22,941 nucleotides of DNA. It comes from Candidatus Parcubacteria bacterium (GTDB lineage: Bacteria; Patescibacteriota; Patescibacteriia; Patescibacteriales; BM507). Every line of letters begins with the position of its first letter. The first letter of the stretch is position 1. A program made the position numbers and the translations under genes. Positions 18,352-19,372 of this stretch are shown piece after piece. Location of the stretch: NCBI GenBank assembly GCA_002869265.1, contig PKTH01000019.1, forward strand, positions 1-22,941, read 5' to 3'. Under the pieces are notes generated by a model, which saw nothing but the letters and a program-made list of their open reading frames with translations, was not told the DNA's origin and did no database searches.

Positions 18352-18442
18352 TTTAACACAAAAACACCCCTAAGATTAGAGGTGTTCCTTTATGGGCGGC
18401 CAATCGAAAAACTTGGCAAATTATTTTGATGAATATTGCTAA
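18352..18442. repeat. Repeat copy B: hairpin AACACCCCTAAGATTAGAGGTGTT plus mini-ORF MGGQSKNLANYFDEYC
   Basis: Direct-orientation copy of repeat A, 32 nt upstream of the 470-aa gene start. The mini-ORF differs from A's mostly by synonymous or conservative codon changes. Confidence 0.6.
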
Positions 18443-18463
18443 GTAATTACTGTAGCTAGTATT

Positions 18464-19372
18464 TTGTGTCTTTCCAGACTATTTCAAATATTTGTTTTAG
18501 CGATGATGCTATGTCTGGATTTTCAATGCGGATTGCTTGTAGATATCGATGTGTCTATAGATGGAACGAAAGAGGCTCATGAAAAACAACGCGGACCCGG
18601 AACATATAGGATAGCGATTGATGGAGCTCGAGCATTATATGAAGTAGCTAGTCATATTTCTATTACAATCACAGCTTCAAAGCTAAATTACAAAGAAATA
18701 GCCAGGGATATTCAGAAATTGGCAAAAGAAATGCCCTTTGTAAAAAGTTTCAATCTGGCGACGACCTCACCTGCGAATTACCAAGAAGAGAGGATGACTT
18801 TAAATGAAAATGAGATGAAAGAGTTGTTTAGTAGTTTGGTTAAGTATTCCAAAGGGCATCCAGTGCGCTTGGTTATTTATCTAAACAAAGACATGGAAGT
18901 GATAATGCCAGAACTAAAAAAACATGCTCAAGCAACAATGAAGTTCATTAACATTGAATGGAAAATAAACAACTTAACAATTGCCTTCTTCCCACCAAGC
19001 ATAGCTTGTGTTGAGGAATACGCCCTAGATGCAAACGGTATGTATGTCCTACCTTATGGCCTTGATCATTATCTCGAATTAAGACCTGACGATTGGCAGA
19101 TGAATAATGATTTAATAGTATCTAATCCAAAAGAGGCATATAGGCAATTGTCAGAAAAGTATTTTATCAAAATGGGTGAGAGAGAGCTGGAGAAAGAAAA
19201 ATATTTAAGAATTATTTCTACTAATCTTTCATATCGGGAAGTAAGTCCCAGATTAAATCAAATATTGATTTTAGAGTATTGTAAATTTCGGCTCCTTCAA
19301 TCAGTAGCGCTATTTCTTCCTTGGCTGATATTAATGCGACATGTTTTTTGCCATAGAGATTTATCTCTATAG
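18464..19372 (+). pseudogene. Radical-SAM-like ORF lacking the N-terminal CxxxCxxC region (truncated remnant or divergent), TTG start
   Basis: VDIDVSIDGTKEAHEKQRGPGTYRIAIDGARAL resembles the distal half of radical-SAM TIM barrels (anSME-like: isiDGpkeiHDkqR). There is no Cys triad. The 3' ~150 nt run antisense through the TrmB gene. Confidence 0.35.

Follow-up and report, generated by a model that had tools for sequence, protein, structure and literature searches.

The radical-SAM core (PF04055), known from MoaA, viperin and anSME, carries a CxxxCxxC motif and, in most members, a GGE motif. SPASM peptide maturases adjoin the genes of their precursors and, together with NirJ/Ahb-type enzymes, are described in NCBIfam by models such as PTO1314, ScmE, ACGX, NirJ1, PapB, WgkB and StsB. 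Ordinary bacterial pseudogenes lose parts of the gene, suffer frameshifts in homopolymers, overlap convergent genes spuriously when a stop is lost, and evolve at a raised rate. Here, we compare with these systems an open reading frame (ORF) of contig PKTH01000019.1 from a Candidatus Parcubacteria bacterium (assembly GCA_002869265.1). The window analyzed is the whole contig of 22,941 nt, and the ORF lies at 18464-19372 on the plus strand (302 aa, TTG start, according to the ORF listing of the window). With high confidence, we regard this ORF as a 5'-truncated and 3'-frameshifted, non-functional remnant (a pseudogene) of a SPASM-less radical-SAM gene of ~360 codons.

The full-length relatives of the ORF share the CxxxCxxC motif of the radical-SAM core and pass the Pfam threshold. 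The window copy keeps the core from the D-x-S-x-D-G strand (beta-4) onward, lacks the cluster loop and beta-1 to beta-3, and has no PF04055 match. The family has H-x-G-R where most radical-SAM proteins have GGE, and it ends in a C-terminal region of its own (~150 aa, with EWKINNL, YFPxSI and EEYALDANG) whose sequence is unlike any solved domain. The SPASM peptide maturases and NirJ/Ahb-type enzymes were the source of the best partial profile matches of the window, but the matches of the family were 10-20 times below the curated cutoffs, and no family member has SPASM or twitch cysteines. As peptide maturases adjoin precursor genes, intact relatives of the ORF adjoin small ORFs with an ANxG(S/T) motif. 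With ordinary pseudogenes, the window copy shares the loss of a gene part, a homopolymer frameshift, a lost stop that gives a spurious long overlap with a convergent gene, a raised substitution rate and the absence of an NCBI gene at the site; its decay is still slight, as there is no internal stop in 227 codons.

An earlier note on this DNA had placed a TTG-initiated ORF at 18392-19372. The ORF does begin with TTG, but at 18464; position 18392 is the ATG of a mini-ORF of 16 codons (mini-ORF B, 18392-18442, MGGQSKNLANYFDEYC and a stop). This ATG lies 72 nt upstream of the ORF start and is thus in the same frame. The TAA at 18440-18442 separates the two, as the note had said, together with seven further sense codons. 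The JGI gene call (P0001) covers 18506-19372 (288 aa), and the ENA call has 289 aa. In the NCBI record, the 470-aa gene PLX21538 (C0584_02330) and the TrmB-family gene PLX21539 (C0584_02335) have consecutive locus tags across the site, so NCBI annotated no gene at the ORF. The overlap with the convergent TrmB gene, given earlier as about 150 nt, measured 152 nt (19221-19372). Reading of the sequence upstream of the candidate starts at 18464, 18503 and 18506 revealed no GGAG-type or Shine-Dalgarno-like motif, and a promoter search there returned only a weak promoter-like match. The ORF and its junction can be divided as follows.

18443-18508, plus strand: orphan junction segment between repeat B (described below) and the first detectable radical-SAM homology, with the TTG at 18464, the ATGs at 18503 and 18506, and the 5' breakpoint
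18527-19201, plus strand: surviving radical-SAM coding sequence, equivalent to residues 129-355 of P0002, a homologue; it runs from the IDVSIDG strand (beta-4) to EKEK near the C-terminus
19197-19201, plus strand: A5 run with the apparent loss of one A, a frameshift that takes away the normal stop
19201-19224, plus strand: ancestral last codons IFKNYFY and TAA (19222-19224), out of frame, as read in the neighboring frame
19202-19372, plus strand: frameshifted ORF tail of 57 codons, ~50 of them antisense to the TrmB coding sequence

On its own, the ORF product matched no Pfam family at E <= 0.1, PF04055 included, and no solved structure by sequence. Against NCBIfam, residues 25-136 aligned to positions ~105-220 of several radical-SAM/SPASM maturase models (E 1e-6 to 1e-4); the best scores were 28-55 bits against curated cutoffs of 170-725, and no named maturase family was reached. 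The radical-SAM similarity claimed in the earlier note is real and becomes visible through relatives. In tblastn, P0002 (362 aa) matched the window at 63% identity (E 7e-97), with 18527-19201 corresponding to residues 129-355, and P0003 (328 aa) matched at 56% identity. Both proteins contain PF04055 (37.5 and 35.9 bits, gathering cutoff 29.5). A hidden Markov model (HMM) of the family C-terminal part matched 18545-19204 (E 2e-83), and a weak similarity of LCLDFQCGLLVD to LIKDIKDAGLYFD may carry the homology upstream to ~18509. As judged from the sequence, the ORF is a radical-SAM member by descent, homologous to PF04055 proteins and collinear with their distal barrel.

Among 1.84 billion representatives searched exhaustively, only ~10 relatives reached E < 1e-10. 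Scans of a genome collection and of a metagenome collection returned no relatives (the latter collection evidently lacked the contig of the window), and a literature search found nothing relevant. The ancestral gene, for an enzyme of ~360 aa, is a member of a small, rare and uncurated SPASM-less radical-SAM family. P0002 has no cysteine after residue 136, and the family alignment has no conserved cysteine beyond IDVSIDG. The absence of SPASM cysteines from the ORF was correctly observed before; since it extends to all family members, it is a family trait and not a loss in the window copy.

In the exhaustive search, ORF residue ~13 paired with position ~130-160 of the full-length relatives (361-391 aa), which answers where the N-termini of the homologues map. 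These relatives have ~100-135 extra N-terminal residues, among them CxxxCxxC (for example, TRDCSFRCKHC). The motif lies ~90-100 residues upstream of D-I/V-S-x-D-G in P0002, P0003, P0004 (361 aa), P0008, P0009, P0010, P0013 and P0016. A short architecture devoid of the Cys triad is therefore not shared by the full-length homologues, all of which carry CxxxCxxC. As stated in the earlier note, the triad is absent from the ORF; we found it in none of the six frames of the 22.9-kb contig either. An HMM of the family N-terminal 131 positions, run with all filters off, had no match in six frames of the window, and tblastn at word size 2 did not find the missing half elsewhere in the window. As these searches took in the entire contig, the contig no longer holds the 5' third of the gene. 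In none of its frames did the segment 18443-18508 match the family N-terminal HMM, and its DNA resembled the 5' coding DNA of four intact genes no more than shuffled controls did. Frameshifted remains just upstream of the break were considered and rejected: the three frames of 18316-18560 yielded scattered, non-collinear 3-of-9 matches and negative HMM scores.

The AlphaFold model of P0002 (mean predicted local distance difference test score 64; best-predicted stretch ~100-280, mostly above 80) has strands at 87-89, 111-115, 136-140, 174-179, 204-208 and 243-247, and its nearest solved folds are MoaA, viperin, HydE, BlsE and anSME. In this model, the break falls just before strand 136-140 (beta-4) and after three earlier strands. 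By these strand positions, it interrupts the barrel between beta-3 and beta-4 and does not coincide with a domain boundary.

The 3' end of the ORF carries another lesion. Homologues end 7-13 residues past a conserved EEK, with the consensus x-I/V-F-K-N-Y-F and a stop. At the A-run, the frame of the ORF reads ELEKEK-YLRIISTN and runs on. The neighboring frame, one base back (equivalent to the restoration of one lost A), reads K-IFKNYFY and stops at the TAA at 19222-19224. Family ends that match this reading include EEKRVFKNYF, QEKKIFKKYNLA and EEKGIFENYFKKK, each followed by a stop. One extra A in the run 19197-19201 joins the two frames; the repaired protein ends in ELEKEKIFKNYFY, and the end of its HMM match moves from position 222 to 228 of 231. 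The ancestral stop and the TrmB stop (19221-19223) share 2 nt, as is normal for genes arranged tail to tail. As it stands, the ORF ends at a chance TAG (19370-19372), 57 codons past the shift, and no homologue reaches into the tail at 19202-19372.

The TrmB C-terminus, on the minus strand, aligns to the TrmB protein of another locus (L009) through residue 250 of 257. This homology of the overlapped codons to a second TrmB identifies the minus strand as the coding strand of the overlap. Stop-free runs of at least 50 codons in this antisense frame occurred at 2.5% of positions in the genes of the window, so that the length of the tail is only mildly unusual. On these comparisons, the 152-nt overlap is a secondary lesion that arose from a one-base deletion in the A-run, and the ~50-codon tail over the TrmB gene is not part of the ancestral protein. 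The earlier note was right that the last ~50 codons are antisense to TrmB, but it missed the frameshift of which this tail, absent from the homologues, is the product.

A rearrangement or deletion with a right-hand breakpoint at ~18443-18526 thus took the first ~125 codons, which encoded the N-terminal helix, beta-1, the [4Fe-4S]-binding CxxxCxxC loop, beta-2 with the H-x-G-R motif of the family, and beta-3. The event may have been either a deletion or a replacement by incoming DNA, and it would also have removed the upstream surroundings, which in intact relatives include the small ANxG(S/T) ORFs. The loss of one base from the A-run put the ancestral TAA out of frame, and the reading frame now runs on through the tail, largely antisense to TrmB, to the chance TAG. 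The product could presumably not cleave S-adenosylmethionine, because the cluster-binding loop and half of the barrel are gone, and the lack of any evident promoter or ribosome-binding site makes its production in appreciable amounts improbable.

To compare rates, unique substitutions were counted against the outgroups P0004, P0006 and P0008: the window had 21, 24 and 18, and P0002 had 13, 9 and 8 (p = 0.17, 0.009 and 0.05, respectively). The excess in the window lineage is ~two-fold. At 63% amino-acid identity, synonymous sites are saturated. Several observations weigh against a pseudogene. The difference in rate is modest and fell short of significance in one of three tests. Over its 227 homologous codons, the copy is free of stops and internal frameshifts, and 13 of the 14 family-invariant residues survive; heavier damage would normally be expected of a long-dead pseudogene in a genome of 35% GC. 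At another locus, L008, homology starts ~5-10 codons from the point in the window (HMM position 120 versus ~121-131), and this near-coincidence of breakpoints could hint at a recurrent or selected short form. Finally, the N-terminal half may be encoded elsewhere in the genome, as the negative six-frame search spans this contig. A search of the same sample for N-terminal-only ORFs with a plain N-terminal query returned nothing, but it also missed P0002 itself and is too insensitive to show absence; a profile of seven N-termini, likewise insensitive (P0002 was missed), returned only P0062, from an unrelated ENA sample. By a rough estimate, the substitution excess amounts to only ~20 mutations, for which approximately one nonsense mutation would be expected, and the intact frame is thus probably weak evidence for function. 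Decay would be recent or slow. L008 is a 1.6-kb contig of 2.8x coverage with its own frameshift in an A7 run.

One rival idea is that the C-terminal two-thirds were kept as a stand-alone protein of ~240-300 aa in a non-radical role, such as the binding of a substrate peptide or a partnership with TrmB. The open frame and the retained invariant residues fit such a protein, as do the conserved linkage to TrmB and the L008 copy (P0005), whose homology likewise begins at HMM position ~120 behind unrelated sequence. We consider it unlikely, however, because the break splits a partial TIM barrel, no Shine-Dalgarno motif or convincing promoter lies upstream, the natural C-terminus has been swapped for the frameshifted codons, and the window lineage evolves faster than P0002. 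In addition, the window copy shares 63% identity with full-length P0002 but 51% with P0005, so the short copies form no clade, and L008 is short, thinly covered and frameshifted in its own right. The genuinely short protein offered as an explanation in the earlier note thus found no positive support. Very unlikely, in our estimate, is the related proposal that the fragment (beta-4 to beta-6 plus the family C-terminal domain) is kept and expressed and was recruited independently on more than one occasion, here and in L008, after cuts at almost identical positions. It might then serve TrmB as a partner that binds peptides or takes part in regulation.

An artefact, in which a chimeric assembly join at the 5' end and/or a sequencing error in the A-run conceals an intact gene, would be in keeping with a metagenome-assembled contig, with the error-prone nature of homopolymer runs and with the frameshifts at A-runs in several relatives on short low-coverage contigs (L007 and L008). 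It is unlikely given that the JGI contig and the ENA contig ERZ794998 NODE_905 (22,897 nt, 11x), which come from different pipelines, are identical over 9,721 nt including both lesions, and that the NCBI copy has the 470-aa gene and the TrmB gene as neighbors. An A5 run is also short for an Illumina error, and two independent lesions with a raised substitution rate fit real decay. Programmed recoding, by read-through of the TAA at 18440-18442 and/or a -1 shift at the A-run to yield a functional enzyme, is hardly credible. Mini-ORF B shares the frame of the ORF, a GAGGTG lies upstream of its ATG within a hairpin, and the A5 run might let Lys-tRNA slip back one base. Yet read-through would add only 24 residues (MGGQSKNLANYFDEYC-x-VITVASI) without CxxxCxxC, whereas ~125 are missing; a second occurrence of the mini-ORF-bearing repeat, at 16860-16901, is not followed by radical-SAM sequence; the repeats do not significantly resemble family 5' coding DNA (shuffle p > 0.1); and no HMM match lies upstream of the remnant, mini-ORF B included, in any frame. 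A shared frame is a 1-in-3 chance and probably a coincidence here, and a restored C-terminus would not restore catalysis. Read-through from mini-ORF B, which the earlier note had entertained, is effectively excluded.

For the locus itself, the pseudogene reading corrects the over-long calls (JGI, 288 aa; ENA, 289 aa) behind a false 152-nt overlap, and the site should be annotated as a pseudogene. This is an ordinary explanation. The wider value lies in the rare, uncurated SPASM-less radical-SAM family, which is repeatedly linked to a TrmB regulator and to ANxG(S/T) ORFs and is often damaged. It could be a new peptide-modification system, and its intact members with their partner peptides (L001 and L009) are a more interesting lead than the window locus.

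Small ORFs of 17-44 aa with the motif A/G-N-T/A/S-G-S/T, in one or two copies, precede the intact genes in L001 (9890-9943), L009 (1268-1384 and 1496-1606) and L010 (~24-68), and follow the copy in L015 (1033-1167). One such peptide is MAAANTGSKGGVNTPRKFNSAAANSGSKGGDIAPRK. The motif is often followed by K-G/A-G...P-R/K-K, and in the L001 and L009 small ORFs examined, a hairpin comes next downstream. In six frames of the ~100 kb of fetched DNA, the motif occurred nowhere else, and no motif ORFs were seen in L002, L012 or the window. The peptides matched no Pfam or NCBIfam family. Their position makes them candidate substrates and suggests that the ancestral enzyme may have modified peptides.

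Damaged copies are frequent in the family.

L008, 1-140: truncated or frameshifted; homology starts at HMM position 120, with unrelated sequence upstream
L010, 560-660: disrupted at HMM positions 129-136
L012, 173-553: C-terminal remnant (HMM 231-359) adjoining an intact paralogue and a Y1 transposase
L015, 1-143: cut at position 89 beside the C-terminus of an rve-type transposase

A conserved A-run coding for an IKK motif coincides with, or is close to, the lesions of L008 and L010. In L002, the DNA at ~9895-9925 encodes the N-terminal extension of P0003 (LIEFWQEAV...), but out of frame with an upstream ATG (MKNKT). For this reason, the first residue of the called P0003 is an internal Met that closely precedes the Cys motif. 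Upstream of the L002 radical-SAM gene, a stretch of 575 nt contains a long imperfect inverted repeat.

The immediate neighbors of the remnant in the window are the following.

19221-19994, minus strand: gene for a TrmB-family helix-turn-helix regulator (PF01978)
18332-18434, no strand assigned: repeat B, with ~78% identity to repeat A (16801-16902); minus strand with a 12-bp hairpin and a U-run after it, plus strand with mini-ORF B (18392-18442)

The regulator gene matched PF01978 with 38.4 bits (cutoff 25.6, E 1e-9) and belongs to the helix-turn-helix regulator family, not to the tRNA methyltransferase of the same name. In L009, a full-length radical-SAM gene (P0004) is convergent with a TrmB gene, which is followed by small plus-strand ORFs; compared with the window pair, the radical-SAM proteins are 48% and the TrmB proteins 42% identical. 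The presence of the same convergent pair in L009 indicates that the pair is ancestral. To the left of the 5' break, L009 and the window have nothing in common. L001 has a Pfam-confirmed TrmB gene near its radical-SAM gene, divergent and not convergent, and L002 has a weakly TrmB-like gene nearby (found by BLAST only, no Pfam TrmB match), also divergent. The TrmB ORF in the window is listed with its start at 19994; homology to the L009 TrmB begins at residue 16, and the real start is probably the ATG at 19964 (MTIKKTLEQ...). A 12-of-12 promoter match (TTGACA, 16-nt spacer, TATAAT) lies just upstream of TrmB on the minus strand (20026-19999).

On the other side of the remnant, direct repeats of ~100 nt, A and B, flank the 470-aa gene. 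As one of three explanations among which it did not choose, the earlier note offered a remnant of a radical-SAM gene broken by the acquisition of this repeat-flanked cassette. The remnant is supported; a role of the cassette was only inferred, and the repeats look like terminator-bearing 3' regions. Repeat A begins directly after the stop of the 470-aa gene (16903) on the minus strand, and on that strand both repeats fold into a 12-bp hairpin with a U-run behind it (folding z-scores -2.4 to -3.3). We read the repeats as 3' untranslated region and terminator modules of minus-strand genes, rather than as insertion scars. Compared with the 5' coding DNA of four intact genes, they scored no better than shuffles (p > 0.1). 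The plus-strand mini-ORFs within the repeats (13 or 16 codons, MGGQARKLANYIV and MGGQSKNLANYFDEYC) have a Shine-Dalgarno-like motif inside a hairpin arm and are probably incidental. The possibility that mini-ORF B is a decayed piece of the gene (MGGQS...YFD resembling NGSGQ...YFDGG of the family) was rejected: the spacing is wrong, a better match (GLLVD-IDVSIDG) lies directly at the remnant, and the repeat DNA showed no significant similarity.

The 470-aa ORF itself (16903-18315, minus strand; the NCBI hypothetical protein PLX21538) matched nothing in Pfam, NCBIfam or PADLOC, and the GC content of its region is 0.29-0.30, compared with 0.33-0.37 in the flanks. Rfam and tRNA scans of the window revealed no known RNA element. 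Further to the left, at ~8600-16700, lies a copper-handling cluster with a P-type ATPase that has an HMA domain, a CsoR-type repressor (PF02583), a small HMA protein and a cupredoxin-like protein. A 76-nt intergenic unit occurs four times (20639-20714, 20940-21015, 21230-21305 and 22273-22348) between small plus-strand ORFs downstream of the TrmB gene. In each copy, a GC-rich hairpin is followed by CTCTCTTATAAAGATTATTT and by a run that ends in AGGAGAA; the unit resembles a repeated module of terminator, promoter and ribosome-binding site in a small-gene array.

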